Below, in pieces: positions 671 to 24,303 of a stretch of DNA of 64,000 bases. The stretch is from the sequence record PV467748.1. One strand, given 5' to 3'. The DNA is from a phage. Positions within the stretch are counted from its first letter, which is position 1. Each line of letters starts with the position of its first letter. The notes under the pieces were generated by a model, which was given only the letters and a program-made list of their open reading frames with translations, was not told where the DNA came from and made no database searches. Position numbers and translations under genes: made by a program.

Positions 671-1954
671 ATGGCAAAGATTAACGAATTACTGCGCGAG
701 TCAACAACTACTTCTAGCAACTCATTGGGTCGCCCTAATCTTGTTGCTTTGACCCGTGCTACAACCAAATTGATTTACCGTGATATTATTGCTGAACAAC
801 GTACTAGCCAGCCTATTGCTGCATTGTATGGTGTCAAATATCTTACTCCTGATAATGAATTTAGCTTCCAAACTGGTGCCGTTTATGGTGGTGAAGTTGG
901 TTCTAAAGACCGTGAAACTATCCCGGAACTCACAGATAAGGCCCAGGCTATTGCCAAGGGTGAATATTTCAAGTATCAGAACATAGTTTATAAGGCTCTT
1001 CAAGCAAGCCCACTCGCATCCACTAGCGCTACAGGATTGGCTGATGCTCTTCAAGAAGGTTTAGTGTCATTAACATGTCGTCTGGTTCCGGACGCTGCTC
1101 ATACCACTAAATTCGAAGCGAGTGATGTAGAAATCTCTGATGCTGTATTCCAGGTAAATAAATGGAATGCTCCTGTTAAGACTCGTAAATTGAAGACTGC
1201 TTTGACAGTAGAATTGGCACAGGATATGGAATCAAATGGATTCGACGCCCCTGCATTCTTAGAAGACCTCCTGGCTACAGTAATGGCAGATGAAATTAAT
1301 AAAGACGTTCTGCAATCCTTGATTACGGTATCTAAACGTTATAAAGTTACCGGTGTATCTGATAACGGCATCATAGATTTGACTTATGATAGTGCTCCGG
1401 AATCTGCACGTAAACTTTATGAAATTGTTTGTGAGATGAATTCTGAAATCCAGAAAACTACTTCTTATTCTGGTACGTTTGTTGTGGCTTCAAGTCGTGT
1501 GGCTGCAATGCTTGCAGGTTCTGGCTGGTTAAAACATAAACCTGAAGATAATAATTGGCTCCCAGAAACCGCCTATGGGTATTTGTTGAATGGATTACCT
1601 CTGTTCTGTGACGTTAACAGCCCGTTGGATTATGTTATCGTCGGTGTTAAAGAGAACTATGGTGGTAATGAAGTTGTCGGTTCTATTTTCTATGCCCCGT
1701 ATACAGAAGGCCTGGATTTAGACGACCAAGAACACGTTGGCGCTTATAAGGTTATTGTCGACCCGGATTCATTACAGCCTTCTATTTCTCTGATGGTTCG
1801 TTATGCACTGTCCGCTAATCCATACACCGTAGCTAAAGACGATAAAGAAGCTCGTGTTATAGATGCAACTAATATGGATTTAATGGCGGGCCAGAGTAAT
1901 ATGTCTTATCTGCTTGGTGTTAAACTTCCAGCAATTATTTACGAGGCTGATTAA
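671..1954 (+). CDS. 24: Capsid vertex protein gp24
   Basis: 427 aa; N-term MAKINELLRESTTT..., LQSLITVSKRYKVTG, SANPYTVAKDDKEAR match recalled T4 gp24; position after 23. Confidence 0.9.
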   Translation: MAKINELLRESTTTSSNSLGRPNLVALTRATTKLIYRDIIAEQRTSQPIAALYGVKYLTPDNEFSFQTGAVYGGEVGSKDRETIPELTDKAQAIAKGEYFKYQNIVYKALQASPLASTSATGLADALQEGLVSLTCRLVPDAAHTTKFEASDVEISDAVFQVNKWNAPVKTRKLKTALTVELAQDMESNGFDAPAFLEDLLATVMADEINKDVLQSLITVSKRYKVTGVSDNGIIDLTYDSAPESARKLYEIVCEMNSEIQKTTSYSGTFVVASSRVAAMLAGSGWLKHKPEDNNWLPETAYGYLLNGLPLFCDVNSPLDYVIVGVKENYGGNEVVGSIFYAPYTEGLDLDDQEHVGAYKVIVDPDSLQPSISLMVRYALSANPYTVAKDDKEARVIDATNMDLMAGQSNMSYLLGVKLPAIIYEAD

Positions 1955-3234
1955 TGTCTAAGATTGTAGACCTAATTAAAGAATCCACATTGACGGCTGC
2001 CAACTCGGTTGGCCGTCCTGCTCTTCTTTCATACACCCAAGCAACTAATAAACGAATCTTTAAAGCCTTAGTTGCTGAACAAAAAACAAGTCAACCTGTT
2101 GCCGCTCTGTACGGGGTTCGTGTACTTAATCCTGATGACAAAATGACTTATCTTGGTGGCGCTACATTTGCAGGCCAGATTGGTATGTCGGAACGTGAAA
2201 ATATTCCTGAATTTACCGATTCGTCTACAGCTTATGCAGCCGGCGATATGTTCCAGTTTGAAAGTGTAGTGTTTAAAGTTCTGGAAGCATCTCCTTTCGC
2301 CGGAACCACAGAAACTGACCTCGGTGAAGTTATTTCTGAAGCAGTGGCTGCTGGGCATATTCGTATGGTATCAGATGCGGCTATTACTTCTAAATTCGAA
2401 CAGGGCCATCCTGAAATTGCTGAAGCAGGCTTCCGTATTGATAAGTGGCAGACTGAAGTTAAATCACGTAAACTGAAAACTTCATTGACCGTCGAATTAG
2501 CCCAAGATCTAGAATCAAACGGGTTTAATGCTCCTAATTTCGTTGAAAACCTGCTAGGCATTCAAATGGCAGAAGAAATTAATAAGGACGTATTACAGTC
2601 ATTAATTACGGTGAGTTCTCGTTTTAAAGTCCAGGGTGTTTCCGAAAAGGGTGTATTGGACCTTACCAACCCACGTTACGATAATGCTCAGGACCGTGCT
2701 CGTACATTGTATTATTACATGTGTGAGATGAACTCTGCCGTACAACGCCAGACTTCTTTCGCTGGGACTTATGCAGTAGCTAGTTCTCGTTGTGCCGCTA
2801 TTCTTGCCGCATCTGGTTGGGTTGAGAAAAAGGAAGACCAAGACGAACTGGCTTACGGTATATTAAAAAATGGCCTGCCTCTTTATGCCGATATGAATAG
2901 TCCGTGTGATTATGTTATTGTTGGTGTAAATGCTCAGATGGGTGAAGGACAGACGGTCGCATCTTTATATTATGCGCCTTATACGGAAGGTTTGAATGAG
3001 GTTGATGAGGAAGGGGATACTTCAGTAGGTGAATTTAAGGTTATTGTTGACCCGGAAAGCTTACAACCTACAGTAGCATTGCTTGCTCGTTATGCATTGA
3101 CTGCAAACCCTTATACCGTCGCTAAGGACGATAAAGAAGCCCGCATTATTGATGGTTCTGATATGGACAAAATGGCTAATCAAAGTCAATTGAGTTCTTA
3201 TCTCGGTGTAAAATTACCACCTTTAGAAAAATAA
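1954..3234 (+). CDS. Second, diverged gp24-like capsid vertex protein paralog
   Basis: 426 aa, collinear with the upstream gp24 (shared LQSLITVS, YAPYTEGL, SLQP, ANPYTVAKDDKEAR blocks) but diverged; start overlaps upstream stop (TAATG). Confidence 0.8.
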   Translation: MSKIVDLIKESTLTAANSVGRPALLSYTQATNKRIFKALVAEQKTSQPVAALYGVRVLNPDDKMTYLGGATFAGQIGMSERENIPEFTDSSTAYAAGDMFQFESVVFKVLEASPFAGTTETDLGEVISEAVAAGHIRMVSDAAITSKFEQGHPEIAEAGFRIDKWQTEVKSRKLKTSLTVELAQDLESNGFNAPNFVENLLGIQMAEEINKDVLQSLITVSSRFKVQGVSEKGVLDLTNPRYDNAQDRARTLYYYMCEMNSAVQRQTSFAGTYAVASSRCAAILAASGWVEKKEDQDELAYGILKNGLPLYADMNSPCDYVIVGVNAQMGEGQTVASLYYAPYTEGLNEVDEEGDTSVGEFKVIVDPESLQPTVALLARYALTANPYTVAKDDKEARIIDGSDMDKMANQSQLSSYLGVKLPPLEK

Positions 3235-16059: not shown

Positions 16060-16083
16060 AAAAAAGGAGAGCGTACGCTCTCC
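16060..16083. terminator. Bidirectional hairpin terminator ggagagcg-ta-cgctctcc between convergent gene 54 and alt-operon
   Basis: Perfect 8 bp stem; A-run on plus side gives T-run for minus-strand transcripts. Confidence 0.6.
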
Positions 16084-16092
16084 TTTAGGGGG

Positions 16093-16383
16093 TTATTTAC
16101 GGAACGAAATGAAACCTGCTGCAGTCATTAGTGGTTGCTTTTTATCAAACACCGTAACTGAAATAGGAGCTTCAGATTCGAGTTGTCCTGTCACTACACC
16201 GTTAAAAATGTTTTCGGTTTGTTCTGGATGAGAAAAATTCTCAACAGGCCGGATATCAAACTGTTTGTCTTCACCGAAAACTCGACGTAATTCATTACCC
16301 ACTGCACTGTCAAACTCTTCAGAAGCAGGGATAACGTTTTCAACCACCAGTTCTTGACCATTAAAACGGAATGCAGATTTCAT
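16093..16383 (-). CDS. Hypothetical protein, 96 aa (alt-downstream ORF)
   Basis: ORF downstream of the alt array in the same orientation. Confidence 0.45.
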   Translation of the reverse strand: MKSAFRFNGQELVVENVIPASEEFDSAVGNELRRVFGEDKQFDIRPVENFSHPEQTENIFNGVVTGQLESEAPISVTVFDKKQPLMTAAGFISFRK

Positions 16384-16440
16384 AATGTTCTCCTCATGTT
16401 TGTGTAAGGTAATAGTACCACATCCTTGTGGTGTTGTAAA

Positions 16441-18564
16441 CTACATTTTGAATTTATTTGATAAAGAAGAGATATCCAAAGACGCTGCAAGGATTTCCAT
16501 AGCTTCGTTGCTTTCAGAAACGGATTCATTAACCAAGAATTGACTAAATCCATCCATCAGGCGAACTTCACCAGTTTCCATCAAATGGTCACCATCGTAA
16601 ACAGATTCGCTGAGCTCTGAAGGAGGTGTTACGGTAGCTTCCATAAGGTATTTGTGAGATACTCTATCATTCATGGCAAAAGCCGCTACTTTATCAACCT
16701 TCAACAATAATCCGCGCGGAAGGATAATTTCTGCTTCTTCGGCATATTCTGTAAGGTCACCAGGAGCGATAACTTTAACTGCTTCAGCACCTCGAATAAC
16801 CATACCAATTTCAGCAATTCTATCTGCAGGACCTTCAGGTGCAATTGGATTACCAAACTCGTCTTCTTCCCATTCTACCTCTTCGTCATCGACTTCACCC
16901 ACATCAGATGAACTACCACTAGCCAATTTAAACAACTCATCAGCTGAGGACAAAGAACCTTCACCACCAACAAAAACGGCTTGGTTGTCGAGGGCCATAT
17001 AATTTTTACCGAATTCACCAAAGATGTTAGGCTTTAATGAGGCTGACACAAAGTTCTTAAAGTAAAATGTTTTGTTATCGATATTATGGCGCAGAATTTT
17101 GTATGGCAAATCCTGACCACGATACAAAATAGTACCCTTAGGAAGTTTAATACCCTTAGTAAATGCTGAGTCTAAATCCTTAATCAATTTAATAGCCGTT
17201 GTATTGTTTTCGGATTCAGGTTTACCTAAAAGGAATAAGTTCATAGGAGCATATTCAGCCGCGCAATATTCAATAATAGCATTGCTTTCGTCTTTGGTTA
17301 GGTCCTTAGGTTTAATGAGCTCGCCTGAATAAGCATATGCATCACTAATAGAATCGTTAACCAGTTTATAAACTGCTTCCATAGCGAAAGCAATTCGAGA
17401 GGCCTTTTCTGAAGGGGAACCCTTAAAACGGGTACTCAGGTTATTAACAATTTTCTTAATAATATCCAGACTATTGGTTGTATTGATTTGCGAAAGACCA
17501 CTTAAAAGTCTATCGACTTCTGTATTAAAAAATGCCATATTATTAGAGTAAATTTCAAACCCTTGTTTATCTCTATTAGCATAATTTAGTTTAAATTTAC
17601 TATCAGTCATTAAAGCGTGTGTGAGAGCAATAGTGTATCTAAAGTTGGCAAGGTCCTCGCTCTTAGATTTAAACTGAGAAGCCTGGCGCATTTTAGTAAT
17701 AGCACCTTTTTTAAAGTTCTGGCTAATCTGTTCAATACCTTCATTCTCAGGGCCTTCAGCCGTGTGAACAGGTACAGAAGCTTCAAACTCATTATAAACC
17801 TGCAATTCTTTAGGGGACAAAGTTTCAGGTTCGGCAGTAGAATACTGCGCCGCTGCTGCCATACGACGGGAAATCTTAGTACGGGTAATGACAGCCTTAT
17901 CGGTACGTTTCTCTTCAACTTGTGCAATAGATGCCGCTACTGCTTCAACCTTACTTACGGCCTGGCCGGTTTTCTTAGAAACATACACTTCGCCAACTTT
18001 AGACTCAACTTTAGTATAAAGATCGGCATTAATTTCAGGCATACCCTTGATATCTTCAATATTAGCACCACGACGTACTAAAAGAACGTAGGTATGTTTT
18101 CCGCTGAATTGGAACATGTCGTCAACAACTTTAAACTTACCACCGGTACGAGCCATAGCCAAACGAGCTAATACGCGCTGAACGGTAGGGCCCTTACCTT
18201 TCATTTTCTTAGTAGGGAAACGGAACAGAACTGCGTCCATTTTAAGTTTGTTTATTTGTTCGTATATGGTATCGAAAATGGTGTTCAGTGTACCAAGTGG
18301 ATCGGTACCCAACCCGCCCTTGAGTTCTGCCGGAGCGCCTTTAGCTGACAAACTCATCAAAATAACATGAACATATTTGTCGCCCGGCTTAACCATTTTA
18401 ATAGCGTCTCCTTGAGACGCATAAGATACCATACGAGCAACCAGATTATCATTACCTGGTGCTTGGATAGAGAAAATCTGTGGAATACCGGAACCCGGTT
18501 TAAGATTTGTTACTGGATAGTTTTTAGCGGAATCACTATCAAAAACCTCATTTAAATTTTCCAT
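16441..18564 (-). CDS. Alt-like ADP-ribosyltransferase paralog 1 (707 aa)
   Basis: N-terminal module shared with the two upstream paralogs; C-terminal R-S-E ART signature (LYRGQ, FVSASL, EAEIILPRG). Confidence 0.8.
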   Translation of the reverse strand: MENLNEVFDSDSAKNYPVTNLKPGSGIPQIFSIQAPGNDNLVARMVSYASQGDAIKMVKPGDKYVHVILMSLSAKGAPAELKGGLGTDPLGTLNTIFDTIYEQINKLKMDAVLFRFPTKKMKGKGPTVQRVLARLAMARTGGKFKVVDDMFQFSGKHTYVLLVRRGANIEDIKGMPEINADLYTKVESKVGEVYVSKKTGQAVSKVEAVAASIAQVEEKRTDKAVITRTKISRRMAAAAQYSTAEPETLSPKELQVYNEFEASVPVHTAEGPENEGIEQISQNFKKGAITKMRQASQFKSKSEDLANFRYTIALTHALMTDSKFKLNYANRDKQGFEIYSNNMAFFNTEVDRLLSGLSQINTTNSLDIIKKIVNNLSTRFKGSPSEKASRIAFAMEAVYKLVNDSISDAYAYSGELIKPKDLTKDESNAIIEYCAAEYAPMNLFLLGKPESENNTTAIKLIKDLDSAFTKGIKLPKGTILYRGQDLPYKILRHNIDNKTFYFKNFVSASLKPNIFGEFGKNYMALDNQAVFVGGEGSLSSADELFKLASGSSSDVGEVDDEEVEWEEDEFGNPIAPEGPADRIAEIGMVIRGAEAVKVIAPGDLTEYAEEAEIILPRGLLLKVDKVAAFAMNDRVSHKYLMEATVTPPSELSESVYDGDHLMETGEVRLMDGFSQFLVNESVSESNEAMEILAASLDISSLSNKFKM

Positions 18565-18567
18565 TAT

Positions 18568-20652
18568 TTACCCTTGGATGAATTTTTCTGGGATGTCATA
18601 GAGGTCTATGCATGAAGCCAAAAGAGGCAGTACATCAAACCGGGTAGATTTAACAAATGAATCAAAAGATACAGGGCTTTCGGAAGTATCGAAGTCATCT
18701 TGGTATACAACCAATTCACCAGTTTCCATTAGTACGTCACCATCATACACTACAGATTCTTGAAGCTCATCTGTTGTCATAACTTCAGCTTGAATGAGTT
18801 TTGTATTATTAGATGTTGTTCCATCATTATTAGAAGCATCTGTTATTTTATTAACTTTGACCATTAATCCACGTGGTAGAATAACTTCAGCTTCAGTTGC
18901 TATTCCGAGATTTCCTGGATATACAACATTAACTTTATGAGCACCGTCAATTGCCCATCCTATTTGAGCTTTAACGTAATCAGGATTTTCCTTATACGCC
19001 CTTATTTCATTAGGGTTAATAGTTATTCCTTCTTCATTTTTATCGACTGTCAATTCATTGCGAACTTCCGGTTCTAAAAGACCGATACCAGCGTGTGTAA
19101 CACCAAATCGTCCAAAAATGATAGGGGTTAAAGAAGTAGATACAAAATTTCTGAAATAGAACACTTTATTTTTAACTAGTGCTTCGTATATAGGAGCAGT
19201 CATACTCTGGGCACGATAAACTGTGATGCCTTCTGGTATACGGTCGCCGTTTTCAAAAGCTGAATCTAAATTATTTATCGCAGATTCAATTTCTTTTTCA
19301 CTCATTACCTCATATCGTTCTGGATTGTAGCGACCTAAAAGAAGATTATTGATGTCAGTATATCCTGAACCACAATATTCTCTGATACCACGCTTTTGTG
19401 ATGGAGTATATTTAGAACCCTCACGAGCAATAGTAATATCAACCATAATACCGCCACCTACACCAGCAAAACTATAAACACATTTTTTAATGAACTTGGT
19501 CTTAGTGGCTTTCCACTTGGACTCGGTTAATTCATTCCAGACGTCGTCAGGTTGACCTTTACGAGTTTTGTTATGCTTGGCCAACCATTTGGCTTTGTAT
19601 TCTTCGAAAATGGTATTAATAGCAGAGGCATATTTTTCTAGAGCTTTAACAGATGTCAAAGGTTCGTTTTTGATGGCCGCAAGAATTTTATCTTTAATTT
19701 TCTCTTGGATTTCACCTATACCGTGAAGAGGAAACATTTTGTAATCGTAATGCAATTCTTCAGCAGTGCCTTCAGCTATTATATTAGCAACCTTATTTTT
19801 AGCCGCAGGAGAATTGTTATTAGTAACCATTTCCTGGGCCTCAGGGATTAATGGAGCTGTTGCTGGTTTATTAAAATCCACTGCAGTAGCTTCATATTTC
19901 TTAAACAGTTCACTTTCATTACGATAAGATTCTAACGATTGACTTGCTGCAATAGCACGACGCGAAATCTTAGTCTTGGTTATAACCATTTTATCAGTGC
20001 GACGTTCTTCAACTTTAGCAATACTGCCGGCAATAGCAGTTTCTTTAGTAACCTGCACACCTTCTTTTTTAGAAATATAAACTTCACCGACATCAGAATC
20101 TACCTTAGTGTATAATTCGGAATTAATTCCAGGCATACCTTTGATATCTTCGATATCAGCTTGTTTACGAACTACTAGAATATAAGTATGTTTACCAGTA
20201 AATTGGTACATAGCCGGAACTACTTTGAAGCGTCCACCTGTTTTTTGAGTTGCCAAACGTTGGATAATCCGTTGGACGATAGGTCCTTGCCCTTTCATTT
20301 TCTTGGTTGGAAAACGGAACATCACAGCATCCATACGAAGCTTTTTAACTTGTTCGAATACTACGTCGAAAATGGTATTAATAGCATCAATAGGAGTAGG
20401 GCCTAAGCCGCCTTTAAGTTCGGCTGGAGAACCTTTAGCTGAAAGGCTCATAAGGATAATGTGGGCGTATTTATCACCTAATTTAACCTGTTTAATAGCA
20501 TCGCCTTCAGAGGCATAAGATACCATACGAGCAACCAATTGGGATTCAGCATCGCCAATCTTCCAAATCTGGGGTACTTTAAGTTTTGGGTTTAAGTTTA
20601 CAGTAGGCAGGGTGCCTTCGGACTCAAACACCTCATTCAATTGTTCGGTCAT
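18568..20652 (-). CDS. Alt-like ADP-ribosyltransferase paralog 2 (694 aa)
   Basis: Same N-terminal module; C-terminal TVYRAQ, FVSTSL, EAEVILPRG. Confidence 0.8.
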   Translation of the reverse strand: MTEQLNEVFESEGTLPTVNLNPKLKVPQIWKIGDAESQLVARMVSYASEGDAIKQVKLGDKYAHIILMSLSAKGSPAELKGGLGPTPIDAINTIFDVVFEQVKKLRMDAVMFRFPTKKMKGQGPIVQRIIQRLATQKTGGRFKVVPAMYQFTGKHTYILVVRKQADIEDIKGMPGINSELYTKVDSDVGEVYISKKEGVQVTKETAIAGSIAKVEERRTDKMVITKTKISRRAIAASQSLESYRNESELFKKYEATAVDFNKPATAPLIPEAQEMVTNNNSPAAKNKVANIIAEGTAEELHYDYKMFPLHGIGEIQEKIKDKILAAIKNEPLTSVKALEKYASAINTIFEEYKAKWLAKHNKTRKGQPDDVWNELTESKWKATKTKFIKKCVYSFAGVGGGIMVDITIAREGSKYTPSQKRGIREYCGSGYTDINNLLLGRYNPERYEVMSEKEIESAINNLDSAFENGDRIPEGITVYRAQSMTAPIYEALVKNKVFYFRNFVSTSLTPIIFGRFGVTHAGIGLLEPEVRNELTVDKNEEGITINPNEIRAYKENPDYVKAQIGWAIDGAHKVNVVYPGNLGIATEAEVILPRGLMVKVNKITDASNNDGTTSNNTKLIQAEVMTTDELQESVVYDGDVLMETGELVVYQDDFDTSESPVSFDSFVKSTRFDVLPLLASCIDLYDIPEKFIQG

Positions 20653-20660
20653 AATAATTC

Positions 20661-22556
20661 CTATTTAAATAAATTTGATAATTTTTCCATAGAATCTTCG
20701 TAAAGGATTTTATCATAACTTTCAAATGAAAGTACTGTGCTATACGAATTTTCTTCTGTGATTTGTTCAGAACCAATAACTTCGCACTCCACCAATACGT
20801 ACTTACCTATAGAACCCATAAGACCTTTAGAAGCACCATACACTTTATTAATTTTAAGCATTACGCCTCTAGGAAGAATAACCTCAGTTTCTGTAGACCA
20901 ATTTGCCAAATTACCTGGTACGATAACTTTAATTTTGTCCGCGCCTTTAATAATTAATCCAAGCTTAATTGTCTCTCTAGCACTTCCGGTTGCACTTTTA
21001 ATTGTGTCTTCTAGATTATTATCTATATCGCTAGAAAGAGCTTCGGGATCTAAATTTGATTGAGCGTGTCCCATTTCGCCAAAAATATTAGGAGCTAATG
21101 AGGTAGATGCGAAAATAGGAAGATACATTACTTTATGTTTTATTGAATTCAAAGCCATTTCGGTGGGCATTATTTGAGATCGATACACTATAGTTCCTTT
21201 AGGGAGCTTTGTACCGTTTTCAAAAGCAGAATCCATATCACCAATCATTTTTATCATTTCATCAGTAGTATCTGTTTTACCTAATAAAAAGTTGTTAATG
21301 TGATTATATCCACCGCGAGTGTACTTTTTGATAGCCTCTTCTTGAGGTTTAGTTAAATTGGGATTGTCATCTATTTTAAACAAAGGTTGTATAGATTTGG
21401 TATAGACTGCTACTAATGATTTTATTACTTCTTTTATTTTAGATTCTCTAGCCCATGTACCTTTAACTGAACCATCTAAAAGAGATGCGGCAACTAATCT
21501 AAGGACGTCCACATGTGTTTTACCTGATTTTAAAGCATTTATAACACCATTAGATTTATCTAAAGAATCTGATGATTCTAAAGCAAACTTTATATCTTTA
21601 ATTAATTTAAGCCTATGCTCATCTATTTCAAACGACGGATTAACACCATTAAAAATATAATCTAAATATTCTGCCATTTCTTTAGAAGTATCTTTTAATA
21701 CTTTAATACCGGCTGACGCTATTTGGCTTTCTTTAGAACCTTCAGAAGAATGCACTGAACTAGTAATAGATAAATCGGAGTAAACTTTTTTATGTTCTTC
21801 TGAAAATTTATTCAATCCTGACGGTTCTGATGTTGAGTATAGTGCATTTATTGCGGCTCGTTTAGAAACCTTTGTTTTGGTTATAACCATTTTATCTGAA
21901 CGAGATTTTTCTATTTCATCTATAGATTTAGCTATGGCTTCTAGTTTAGTAACATCTTCACCTGTTTTCTTTGAAACATATACATCACCAACTTCAGATT
22001 CAACTTTAGTATATAACTCAGCATTAATATTTGGGATGCCTTTTATAGATTCTATATTTTTATTTTTACGGTAGATAAAAACATATGAATGTTTACCACT
22101 GAATTGGTACAAGGCGTCAAGGACCTTGAATTGTCCACCCGCTCTAGAAGCTATCAATTTGGCTAGGACTCTCTGTACGGTTTTTTCCTGCCCTTTCATT
22201 TTCTTGGTTGGAAAACGGAACATCACAGCATCCATACGAAGAGCTTTAATTTGTTCATAGACTATATCAAATATGGAACGAATAGCTGAAATAGGATTTG
22301 TGCCTAGCCCGCCTTTAAGTTCAGCCGGCGTACCTTTAGGAGATAGGCTCATTAAAATAACATGCACGTATTTATCACCCGGCTTAACTTGTCTAATGGC
22401 ATCACCTTCTGAAGTATAAGAAACCATTCGCGCTACAAGGTTATCATTACCTTCTGCCTTTATATTCCAAATCTGTGGTACTTTAAGTTTAGGGTTTAAA
22501 TTAATAGCAGATAAATCTACATCCCCATCAAATATTTCATTTAGTTGTTCAGGCAT
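20661..22556 (-). CDS. alt: Alt-like ADP-ribosyltransferase paralog 3 (631 aa)
   Basis: Same N-terminal module; C-terminal IVYRSQ, FASTSL, ETEVILPRG; adjacent to ligase side as T4 alt. Confidence 0.8.
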   Translation of the reverse strand: MPEQLNEIFDGDVDLSAINLNPKLKVPQIWNIKAEGNDNLVARMVSYTSEGDAIRQVKPGDKYVHVILMSLSPKGTPAELKGGLGTNPISAIRSIFDIVYEQIKALRMDAVMFRFPTKKMKGQEKTVQRVLAKLIASRAGGQFKVLDALYQFSGKHSYVFIYRKNKNIESIKGIPNINAELYTKVESEVGDVYVSKKTGEDVTKLEAIAKSIDEIEKSRSDKMVITKTKVSKRAAINALYSTSEPSGLNKFSEEHKKVYSDLSITSSVHSSEGSKESQIASAGIKVLKDTSKEMAEYLDYIFNGVNPSFEIDEHRLKLIKDIKFALESSDSLDKSNGVINALKSGKTHVDVLRLVAASLLDGSVKGTWARESKIKEVIKSLVAVYTKSIQPLFKIDDNPNLTKPQEEAIKKYTRGGYNHINNFLLGKTDTTDEMIKMIGDMDSAFENGTKLPKGTIVYRSQIMPTEMALNSIKHKVMYLPIFASTSLAPNIFGEMGHAQSNLDPEALSSDIDNNLEDTIKSATGSARETIKLGLIIKGADKIKVIVPGNLANWSTETEVILPRGVMLKINKVYGASKGLMGSIGKYVLVECEVIGSEQITEENSYSTVLSFESYDKILYEDSMEKLSNLFK

Positions 22557-22577: not shown

Positions 22578-22585
22578 TATTTATG
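22578..22585 (-). promoter_or_regulatory. Possible late promoter variant (CATAAATA) upstream of alt array
   Basis: rc reads CATAAATA about 25 nt upstream of alt paralog 3 ATG; 7/8 match to TATAAATA. Confidence 0.3.
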
Positions 22586-22587
22586 CC

Positions 22588-22610
22588 AGAAAAAGGCCCG
22601 AAGGCCTTTA
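22588..22610 (-). terminator. Hairpin aaaggcc-cgaa-ggccttt with flanking A/T runs
   Basis: Palindromic hairpin between the small ORF ending at 22611 and alt; T-run on minus-strand RNA. Confidence 0.5.
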
Positions 22611-22796
22611 TTAAGGAAGTACTAGCAGAGTACGGTAAACTTCAAATTTAGGACCCTTTTCATAGCGGTCGAAATTATCTTTAAAATCAGCGAACGCGAT
22701 TTCATTTTCAAATTCAAGGACAATTTGGGACACTGCGGTGGAGACATCGCCACCTTCTTTATATCCAATAACCACGGTTTCTAAATAAGCTTTCAT
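22611..22796 (-). CDS. Hypothetical small protein (61 aa from Met15)
   Basis: ORF track 22611..22838 overlaps ligase; shortened to internal Met just after the ligase stop. Confidence 0.35.
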   Translation of the reverse strand: MKAYLETVVIGYKEGGDVSTAVSQIVLEFENEIAFADFKDNFDRYEKGPKFEVYRTLLVLP

Positions 22797-22797
22797 A

Positions 22798-24303
22798 TTA
22801 TAGTCCAGTTTGAGACCAATCGCCAAATACATCTTCAAATGTATCAGCTTCTGTTTTATCGAAACGCCAACCTTTAATAATTGGAAGGAAAATACCTACA
22901 GTATCAGTACGTCCTTTAGAATGAACCCAACCATTACATTCGCAGTCAGCAATACGACCAATCAATTTACCTTCACGGGCTTGTTTCATAAGAAGTTCAC
23001 GGTCTAAATCAGGACGGTCTTCTAATGGAATCAATACCTTTTTACCTGATTTATCTTTCTTATGGGTGGTATCTTTAAAGCCTGAGCCACAGTCACTTGT
23101 AATTCGACGACAACGTGATACCAATTCGACACCACCAAGTTTGTTAGGGTCCTTCGAGTGTTCATAATAACCCACTACTTCTAAAGCGATATCGATTACT
23201 TCTTTGAACTTGATAAGATTCTTAGAACGGCGGTTTTCCCAGTAGGAGTCCATGTTCTTAAGGATAATACCTTCCAGACCTTGGTCGACATATTTCTTAT
23301 AAACGACTTTAGCTTCTTCAAGATTATTAACCCATTGCGTTTCAATAGGCTCGACACGTGTAAAGCCTTCAGCCATTTGTACTAATGCAGCTAAACGAAC
23401 ATCGTATTTTTGACCTTTAATTTTGCCTTCAGAATAAACTTCATCTAACGGAACATAGTCCCATGCCTGCAATACCATACCATCTGCTTCAGCTGGAGTA
23501 ATAGTTCCTTGAAGAGCTTTATTAGCCAAACCATTTGAAGTAGAACGGTCGGCGACTGTCTGGAATTCCTTGGCTTTACTTAATTCCGGAAGTTCTTCAT
23601 CAAACATACTAAACAAATCGTTAGATGCTTTAGGTTCAACTTTAGGGGTATGGTAAACTAATTCACCATCAATCATAACGCCATTAGGATGACGTTGACG
23701 AGCTTCTTCGGTCATTTTAATAAGTTCGGCTGCAAGCTTAGTAAGCCCTTGATATTCATTACCACCGCGAGTAAGGAATGTAACGCCCGAATCACGAACT
23801 TCAGCAAAACAACGAGCACCGTCAGCTTTTAATTGAGCAAACGCCGGCCATTTAATATTTTTCTTAATTAGAGCTTCGTCATAAGAACTAGCCAACATCT
23901 GTGGTTGTTCAGGGATTAAACCTTTCCAAACCTTGTTAGCAATAGAAATCGATGCACCACATTCAAGGTCGCGCATCATTACACGACGTAATACCTCGGC
24001 ATCTGGTCCCTTAGCATCGGCAATGATTTGAGCCAGTTCTTCAATAGCAGCATTACCGGTAACCTTACGAGTAGCCAAAGTGAATTCAGCGAAATCAAGA
24101 AGGTCTTCAAGAGTAATCATACCAAAGGATTGGGACGTAAATCCAGGTTCAGGCCACTTTTTGATGCCGTAGTTCAGACGACGGGTATACGCCATACGAT
24201 AAACGCGTTTCAGAAGCTCATTGTCCTTTTCACGAGCAATAATAGCTTCTTTAGCTTTAGTAGAATCAATAGAAGCAATTTCGTTTAAAATATCTAAAAT
24301 CAT
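22798..24303 (-). CDS. 30: ATP-dependent DNA ligase gp30
   Basis: 501 aa; collinear with recalled T4 ligase (MILDILNEIASI..., adenylation motif KADGAR, ...CECNGW..., C-term FEDVFGD). Confidence 0.95.
   Translation of the reverse strand: MILDILNEIASIDSTKAKEAIIAREKDNELLKRVYRMAYTRRLNYGIKKWPEPGFTSQSFGMITLEDLLDFAEFTLATRKVTGNAAIEELAQIIADAKGPDAEVLRRVMMRDLECGASISIANKVWKGLIPEQPQMLASSYDEALIKKNIKWPAFAQLKADGARCFAEVRDSGVTFLTRGGNEYQGLTKLAAELIKMTEEARQRHPNGVMIDGELVYHTPKVEPKASNDLFSMFDEELPELSKAKEFQTVADRSTSNGLANKALQGTITPAEADGMVLQAWDYVPLDEVYSEGKIKGQKYDVRLAALVQMAEGFTRVEPIETQWVNNLEEAKVVYKKYVDQGLEGIILKNMDSYWENRRSKNLIKFKEVIDIALEVVGYYEHSKDPNKLGGVELVSRCRRITSDCGSGFKDTTHKKDKSGKKVLIPLEDRPDLDRELLMKQAREGKLIGRIADCECNGWVHSKGRTDTVGIFLPIIKGWRFDKTEADTFEDVFGDWSQTGL

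Follow-up and report, generated by a model that had tools for sequence, protein, structure and literature searches.

A three-gene array of predicted Alt-family ADP-ribosyltransferases in a Dhakavirus and the mosaic architecture of its members

The 64,000-nucleotide (nt) stretch of phage DNA analyzed here (sequence record PV467748.1; hereafter, the window) carries three tandem genes of the T4 Alt family, which we name altA, altB, and altC in the order of their transcription. We propose, with a probability of roughly three in four, that they encode three functional Alt-family NAD+:arginine mono-ADP-ribosyltransferases (ARTs) that are expressed late, packaged, and injected, and whose exchangeable linker and ART cassettes give them different target ranges. 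By analogy with T4 gpAlt, the array would be transcribed late from a CATAAATA element, and its products would be built into the prohead core, trimmed by the prohead protease after L-N-E, and injected along with the DNA; each would then modify arginines in a host protein set of its own by ADP-ribosylation, with the RNA polymerase alpha subunit, toxins, and defense systems as candidates. The three-gene array itself is already known, since the closest relatives carry it in annotated form and the theme is familiar from T4-like genomes. What our analysis adds to an earlier account of the window made from its letters only (the sequence-only reading) is the mosaic architecture of the alt genes, in which an N-terminal module (N-module) and a C-terminal tail bound to the phage lineage surround a linker and an ART core that cluster by type across lineages.

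The three proteins have a common layout, namely, a leader of 7 to 8 residues ending in L-N-E, an alpha/beta N-module of ~230 amino acids (aa), a helical linker of ~170 to 190 aa, an ART domain, and a C-terminal tail. PHROG 802 (Alt-like RNA polymerase ADP-ribosyltransferase) matches each of them over the full length, from residues 1-2 to residues 604-707 (E = 2.3e-204 for altA, 3.4e-264 for altB, and 2.5e-250 for altC), and the Pfam family ADPrib_exo_Tox (PF03496) matches all three (E = 2.5e-15, 2.2e-36, and 2.6e-17, respectively). The homologs found carry PF03496 together with an N-terminal Pfam family, PF26846, which is listed in the protein database on every Alt homolog, including an N-module-only fragment. 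The R-S-E signature that the sequence-only reading had ascribed to each copy was located in all three (residues in Table 1); it consists of the catalytic Arg in (L/V)YRxQ, the S-x-S in F(V/A)S(T/A)SL, and the E-x-E in E-x-E-(V/I)-ILPRG. A family alignment of 71 sequences shows no variation at LPRG, at either Glu, at the first Ser, or at the E and F of the leader, and at least 90% of the sequences keep the catalytic Arg. The Alt E-x-E aligns with the E378-x-E380 region of iota-toxin. An AlphaFold2 model of altA, the most divergent copy, built from the 71-sequence alignment, is confident (mean predicted local distance difference test score, 84; predicted template modeling score, 0.74) and comprises an alpha/beta N-module (residues 1 to ~230), a helical linker (~253 to 447), and a beta-rich C-terminal domain (~457 to 600) predicted to adopt the C3/VIP2/iota-type ART fold. 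Thus, the structure prediction on altA places an ART domain in the C-terminal half, as in the T4 Alt family. Sequence searches of the PDB recovered only weak ART-toxin matches for altB (E ~3e-3) and none for altA and altC, and no deposited Alt structure was found in the PDB.

The mosaic architecture was recognized in a segment-wise comparison of 23 Alt proteins encoded in ten genomes. The N-modules cluster by phage lineage (66 to 67% identity among the window paralogs, 69% between T6 copies 1 and 2, and 82% between the two Thanatos copies; only 41 to 46% between Dhakavirus and Tequatrovirus), whereas the combined linker and ART cassettes cluster by type across lineages. Hence, altB is 69% identical to T6 Alt in the linker and 87% in the ART and C-terminal half (61% in this half to T4 Alt), and altC is 47% and 59% aa identical to T6 copy 2 in the same two regions, with this half being orthologous. 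We partitioned the proteins into the N-module (residues 1 to 232), linker (233 to 400), ART core (401 to 620), and tail. In that order, the nucleotide identities are 54.8%, 66.9%, 92.4%, and 61.6% between altB and T6 alt; 95.0%, 48.8%, 62.6%, and 96.8% between altB and JS98 alta; and 98.0%, 55.0%, 68.2%, and 95.7% between T4 and T6 alt. The altB ART core (95.9% aa identity to T6 alt) is as close at the nucleotide level to T6 alt as it is to its WG01 ortholog (93.0%), and the boundaries between the discordant segments are sharp, lying near residues 235 and 620. This combination indicates that cassette transfer occurs, with cassettes moving between genera and the N-module and C-terminal tail staying with the resident lineage. 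On the same two grounds, we set aside the possibility that the N-modules resemble one another through simple concerted evolution alone, although gene conversion among the N-modules within a genome may add to the pattern. A fourth Dhakavirus type, a 681-aa protein encoded in the middle of a different three-gene array in MX01 (L005:3040-5085) and QL01 (L006:5039-7084), has an altC-type N-module (92% aa and 84% nt identity) and a cassette that is unrelated to those of altA and altC and only 47 to 48% identical to the altB type. The segment identities thus display the conserved N-terminal part and swappable C-terminal effectors by which polymorphic toxins are recognized.

Within the window, the N-modules of the three paralogs are 64 to 67% identical in amino acid sequence and 68 to 71% in nucleotide sequence, so the N-terminal region that had been called near-identical is indeed common to all three, but the degree of likeness was overstated. 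The strong divergence reported for the central and C-terminal regions was borne out, with pairwise identities of 22 to 25% in the linker and 37 to 39% in the ART and C-terminal half (12 to 14% and 35 to 37%, respectively, in the 23-protein segment alignment). All three genes are under strong purifying selection. Compared with WG01, the ratios of nonsynonymous to synonymous substitution rates (dN/dS) are 0.03 for altC, 0.06 for altB, and 0.06 for altA, and no segment exceeds 0.13. The altC protein, 99.4% identical to the WG01 copy, shows no nonsynonymous change in the ~475 codons of the linker and ART half despite a dS of 0.07 to 0.15, and past residue 234 it is 100% identical to its QL01 counterpart. 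This type is kept in JS98, JS10, QL01, and others and is the second full copy in T6/RB6-like Tequatroviruses. Of the three genes, altA is the most diverged from WG01 (89.7% aa identity; dS, 0.82), yet it is still strongly constrained. It is also the rarest and fastest-evolving type, present at ~90% in WG01 and LQ5, with its cassette found in only eight records at 80 to 90% identity (best in LQ5, 88.9%) and its next relative being a 624-aa protein of Shigella phage SP18 (63%).

That each type is deeply diverged yet strongly constrained is what suggests different targets. The three genes might instead serve dosage, merely raising the Alt activity per virion against a single set of targets, foremost the RNA polymerase alpha subunit, with their divergence reflecting neutral drift in unimportant regions. 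The catalytic residues and E-x-E kept in all three predict a common arginine specificity, the common N-module suggests a common route into the head, close relatives manage with two copies, and a single one suffices in Mosigvirus and Kanagawavirus. Against this stand linker and ART halves that are only 12 to 39% identical between paralogs while each type is tightly conserved across phages, a dN/dS of 0.03 to 0.13 in every segment, and paralog lineages that are older than the split between Dhakavirus and Tequatrovirus. Moreover, a 2025 preprint reports that T4 Alt helps evade the type I Mokosh system and that the Alt variant of Bas37 is no substitute for it (bioRxiv 10.1101/2025.11.20.689424), i.e., that Alt variants are not interchangeable. 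We therefore regard redundant dosage as unlikely.

We seeded profile searches with the three N-modules of the window and recovered 72 proteins (E ≤1e-3) among 1.84 billion representative sequences, a tiny family confined to T4-like phages. The match lies at the extreme N terminus in nearly all of these proteins, the one clear exception being a weak repetitive match (P0177), and most of them are standard Alt proteins of 600 to 712 aa. Inspection of the outliers by eye showed degenerate ART motifs in P0170 and P0172. Two other members combine the Alt N-module and an L-F-E-I-F-D leader with something else: P0174 (541 aa) has no recognizable ART domain, and P0171 (1,142 aa) has a 600-aa C-terminal extension without a recognizable domain. 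These two may be fusions of the N-module to other payloads. A further candidate for such a fusion, P0118 (371 aa, N-module only), was rejected as a truncated Mosigvirus-type Alt. Since the N-module tracks the phage lineage and not the host (all of these phages infect Escherichia coli), a role on the phage side is the likelier one, and we infer that the lineage-specific N-module serves head-core incorporation and/or ejection, with the cassette carrying the target specificity.

The predicted structure of the altB N-module gave weak matches to the GNAT fold. GNAT proteins carry a motif A, Q/R-x-x-G-x-G/A, in the beta4-alpha3 loop. In the N-module, an invariant G-x-G, part of LKGGLG, is flanked by a central strand (residues 62 to 70) and a long helix (87 to 105); by the order of elements, this would be the place of motif A, although the loop is long. 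The N-module could accordingly be a stripped-down GNAT-fold domain with the G-x-G loop at the cofactor position, an idea to which we give little credence. If it is GNAT-like, each packaged Alt could be a two-activity effector (acyl transfer and ADP-ribosylation), or, alternatively, a coenzyme A (CoA)- or nucleotide-like ligand could be used for head incorporation. On this same improbable view, the alt locus would be a polymorphic-effector array in which lineage-specific N-modules act as sockets and ART cassettes are traded horizontally between T-even genera as an antidefense arsenal. The more far-reaching version, in which the Alts are two-headed enzymes whose N-module binds an acyl-CoA-like cofactor and catalyzes a second modification, is compatible with the reading of the array as three packaged ARTs, but it is improbable on several counts. 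None of the three N-modules matched a GNAT family in Pfam at E values up to 10, and an N-module profile run against the sequences in the PDB yielded only chance matches (SwaI and RIG-I; E ≥0.3). The N-module model is without the GNAT alpha1-alpha2 region, and its G-x-G loop, at ~16 residues, is much longer than those of GNATs. Finally, N-modules are closer within a genome than across genera, a pattern more in keeping with a partner on the phage side than with a substrate from the host. Searches of the literature found no described GNAT-like Alt domain. We treat the GNAT-like fold as a lead, with catalytic activity unlikely.

The sequence-only reading described three consecutive co-oriented open reading frames (ORFs) of 707, 694, and 631 aa, separated by 3 to 8 nt, and its coordinates and gaps are exact: altA and altB are 8 nt apart (GAATTATT) and altB and altC are 3 nt apart (ATA). 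Shine-Dalgarno-like sequences at the gene junctions, together with these short gaps, fit a single transcript. At the two ends that it had proposed for the transcript, a late-promoter-like element and a terminator-like hairpin were likewise found (Table 1). Upstream of altA, a GC hairpin, AAAGGCCTTCGGGCCTTT, is followed by the putative promoter CATAAATA and then by an AAGAGGA Shine-Dalgarno sequence. The hairpin is terminator-like but was missed by a simple terminator scan because of its short T-run. Its position is conserved, as it is also found upstream of alt in T4, JS98, and WG01, and at the place homologous to that of the window's CATAAATA, T4 has TATAAATA after the same hairpin, and JS98 and WG01 have CATAAATA. 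It is this positional homology and conservation that speak for a late promoter. At the other end, the hairpin AAAGGAGAGCGTACGCTCTCCTTT, followed by TTTG, is the only strong terminator-like hairpin on this strand and is located 3' of the alt.-3 homolog, so the late transcript probably takes in alt.-3. The 57 nt that separate the altC stop codon from alt.-3 contain a sigma-70-like promoter (TTTACA, a 17-nt spacer with TG, and TACTAT); hence, alt.-3 may have its own early promoter besides late read-through.

The three proteins start with an LNE(V/I)F motif (within residues 4 to 9), which the sequence-only reading had connected with the L-x-E rule of the T4 prohead protease, and the invariance of its E and F throughout the family agrees with that connection. 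The corresponding site in T4 Alt, I-T-E, is of the same form. In T4, gpAlt (~40 copies per head) loses small N-terminal peptides to the protease gp21 (PMC9958956), and an Alt homolog has been detected by mass spectrometry in virions of a Morganella T-even phage (PMC5384007). The window additionally encodes two tandem gp24-like head vertex paralogs, annotated in relatives as "head vertex protein (x2)." Their N termini (MAKINELLRE/S and MSKIVDLIKE/S) place L-R-E and I-K-E, respectively, at residue 10, as the cleavage site of T4 gp24 is placed, and this retention of T4-type L/I-x-E sites makes the same protease specificity likely. It is highly doubtful that the Alt proteins are not virion cargo and act in the infected cell like ModA and ModB, with a coincidental N-terminal L-x-E, because, even though L/I-x-E tripeptides are frequent by chance and proteomic data for these genes were not found in the literature, the leader E and the next F are invariant in 71 homologs, L-x-E is kept in remote relatives (LFE-IFD in P0171 and P0174), the whole N-module is common to all three and to T4 gpAlt, whose presence in the head is established (PMC9958956), the putative late promoter has a positional homolog in T4, and the virions of another T-even phage contain an Alt homolog (PMC5384007).

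Several points weigh against interpreting the array as three late-expressed, packaged enzymes with different targets. (i) The promoter element differs from TATAAATA at the first base, and the motif counts in the window (9 matches for TATAAATA and 2 for CATAAATA) cannot back the promoter call, as these 8-mers do not occur above chance. (ii) The ART folds of altB and altC are predicted from Pfam matches and motifs, with altA alone having been modeled. (iii) Between S-x-S and E-x-E, altC carries acidic sequence beyond what is seen in the other copies, and its Pfam ART match is divided into two parts by this insertion. (iv) Different targets are argued from divergence and one report of noninterchangeable Alt variants. 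(v) Proteomic, transcript, or enzymatic data were not found in the literature for any Dhakavirus Alt paralog, so it is by analogy with T4 that altA, altB, and altC are proposed here to be transcribed late and their products to be packaged, cleaved, enzymatically active, and directed at different targets. The acidic stretch of altC (residues ~540 to 600, including the insertion ...SSDVGEVDDEEVEWEEDEFGNPIAPEGPADRIAE) is 100% conserved in QL01, WG01, and MX01 and poorly conserved in the second copy of T6; it is a candidate substrate-recognition element.

The third point could also be taken to mean that at least one copy is noncatalytic or decaying, like T4 alt.-1/alt.-2, and serves the head core structurally, if at all. 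T4 is a precedent for the decay of a second copy, truncation is seen in P0118, the third copy of phage 04086 has a gap, and the remote relatives P0170 and P0172 have the degenerate motifs mentioned above. In the window, however, there are three uninterrupted ORFs with invariant R, S, and E-x-E, dN/dS is 0.03 to 0.06 with the ART segments included, and even altA, the most divergent copy, yields a confident ART model. A noncatalytic or decaying copy is very unlikely.

The phage is a Dhakavirus, i.e., a T-even phage like JS98 and WG01. Over the first 12 kb of the window, identity to ABTNLS3, WG01, LQ5, E33, and Bp7 is 95 to 96%, and the genes flanking the array are ~95% identical to those of WG01. 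The 6.9-kb alt region matches WG01, PSD9, E33, LQ5, ABTNLS3, and PSD2002 at 91 to 92% DNA identity over its whole length, and in these six phages the same three genes (631, 693 to 694, and 707 aa) are present and annotated as Alt-like ADP-ribosyltransferases, with order, orientation, and neighbors unchanged and no structural difference. In WG01 (ORF199 to ORF201; 631, 693, and 707 aa), RefSeq names all three "Alt-like RNA polymerase ADP-ribosyltransferase." To survey copy numbers, we ran tblastn with the altB N-module and considered the 51 Dhakavirus-type records with a best match of at least 92% identity. Two copies were found in 31 records, three in 18, four in 1, and five in 1; thus, at least three copies occur in 20 of 51 records, or in ~16 of 38 phages after GenBank/RefSeq duplicates are discounted. 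The records with the most N-module matches are those of phages 04086 (OR842557.1; five) and LHE83 (OQ561750.1; four), which possibly have larger arrays or else assembly or annotation problems. In 04086, whose 177-kb record is sparsely annotated, the local array (L011:7091-13642) has three genes (631, 693, and 608 aa) and 740 nt left unannotated as a gap. JS98, JS10, and IME08 have two copies, annotated as alta and altb (JS98 being without the altA type), and MX01 and QL01 have three, with the different 681-aa middle gene in place of altA. Beyond Dhakavirus, T6 has two full-length copies (697 and 685 aa), Aeromonas phage 44RR and Shewanella phage Thanatos-1 have two each, and examples of Mosigvirus and Kanagawavirus have one.

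These comparisons alter two elements of the sequence-only reading. First, it had cast T4 as a phage with a single alt gene, but according to the annotation of T4, alt.-1/alt.-2 (L003:5066-5451) stem from an old duplication that involved the first part of alt and has since decayed. The start of alt.-1, MELITELFDGAS..., is identical to that of the second alt of T6 (685 aa; L004:3808-5865), whose linker and ART half is orthologous to that of altC, so the "single" alt of T4 looks like a secondary loss. Second, the implied novelty of the array falls away. That reading had itself named as a ground for its refutation the finding that the array is common and already characterized in close relatives. 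It is common and annotated there, which largely amounts to that outcome, but experimental work on Dhakavirus Alt paralogs, functional or proteomic, was not found in the literature. Alt duplications were described in 44RR and RB49, along with T4 alt.-1/-2, in 2006 (PMC1524935), and three Alt-like genes in Acinetobacter phage ZZ1, one of them divided into separate N-module and ART genes, as well as duplications in Ac42, JS98, and Bp7, were described in 2014 (PMC4177764).

The array can be set beside five known systems. (i) T4 gpAlt and T6 Alt belong to the same family and have the same domain order and locus, with altB as their counterpart, but the window N-modules are only 44 to 46% identical to theirs. 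The copy number also differs, with T4 having one intact gene and a remnant, T6 having two, and the window having three, and packaging, cleavage, and targets have been shown experimentally for T4 Alt, whereas the window Alts are known from their genes. (ii) Other Straboviridae (JS98/JS10/IME08, MX01/QL01, 44RR, Thanatos-1, and ZZ1/Ac42) have tandem Alt paralogs between baseplate genes and the ligase gene. There too the N-modules are more alike within a genome than the cassettes are, but the sets of cassettes differ from that of the window. (iii) The T-even internal proteins IPI, IPII, and IPIII are packaged, have a short, conserved N-terminal targeting leader removed by gp21 at L/I-x-E, and are injected; their payloads, which counter host defenses, vary greatly from one related phage to the next (PMC3012670 and PMC7697877). 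They are small and share only a capsid-targeting sequence of ~10 aa, whereas the Alt copies also share a folded module of ~230 aa and carry an enzyme. (iv) MuF-fused phage toxins and polyvalent proteins join a conserved N-terminal virion-associated part to variable C-terminal effectors, including ARTs of the Alt/VIP2 clade (PMC5512222 and PMC9503650). No Pfam match to the MuF domain was detected in altA, altB, or altC, and with 3 and 8 nt between the genes, adjacent immunity genes would not fit. (v) The R-S-E toxins C3, VIP2, iota Ia, CDTa, and Vis have the ART fold and the R/S-T-S/E-x-E residues in common with the window Alts at 11 to 21% identity. They differ in delivery, which for the Alts would be via the phage head and not by secretion or a binary B component.

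The array occupies the same locus as the alt family of T4, between the homologs of gene 54/alt.-3 and those of alt.1/gene 30. Upstream are a 75-aa alt.1-like ORF and then a homolog of DNA ligase (gene 30), and downstream are the alt.-3 homolog and then convergent homologs of genes 54 and 48. The alt.1-like ORF matches Pfam PF24647 ("Phage blade protein"; E = 9e-29) from residue 15 on, and since it would overlap the ligase gene by 41 nt if it began at the listed TTG, the true start is probably the ATG at residue 15 (~22796).

Table 1. Features of the alt locus and of related genes in the window (positions in the 64,000-nt stretch)
Feature	Position	Strand	Description
gp24-like head vertex paralog 1	671-1954	+	427 aa
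gp24-like head vertex paralog 2	1954-3234	+	426 aa
Intrinsic-terminator-like hairpin	16063-16086	-	Between alt.-3 and the convergent gene 54 homolog
alt.-3 homolog	16093-16383	-	96 aa; Pfam DUF5498; between array and terminator
Sigma-70-like promoter	16412-16440	-	
altC	16441-18564	-	707 aa; third gene of the array; R482, S507/S509, E610/E612
altC E-A-E codons (catalytic)	16729-16737	-	
altC acidic stretch	16765-16947	-	
altC N-module	17863-18564	-	Residues 1-234
altB	18568-20652	-	694 aa; T4/T6 Alt-type copy; R480, S505/S507, E587/E589
altB E-A-E codons (catalytic)	18886-18894	-	
altB N-module	19957-20652	-	Residues 1-232; predicted alpha/beta domain
altA	20661-22556	-	631 aa; first gene of the array; LNE at residues 5-7, R459, S484/S486, E556/E558
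altA E-T-E codons (catalytic)	20883-20891	-	
altA N-module	21858-22556	-	Residues 1-233
Late-promoter-like element (putative)	22578-22585	-	21 nt upstream of the altA start codon
GC hairpin, terminator-like	22592-22609	-	Directly after the stop codon of the alt.1 homolog
alt.1-like ORF	22611-22838	-	

Alt is a classic example of a phage enzyme that is injected with the DNA for host takeover. In light of the Mokosh report, in which the Alt variants were not interchangeable, arrays of two to three or more such variants are plausible ready-made sets of enzymes for host takeover or antidefense that differ in specificity. The arrangement of a lineage-bound N-module and tail around an exchangeable linker and ART cassette suggests how these sets are assembled, and the mosaic pattern points to the part to swap in engineering. 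The wider interest therefore lies in the Alt family and not in this window, namely, in its cassette-exchange architecture and the possible GNAT-like fold of its N-module.

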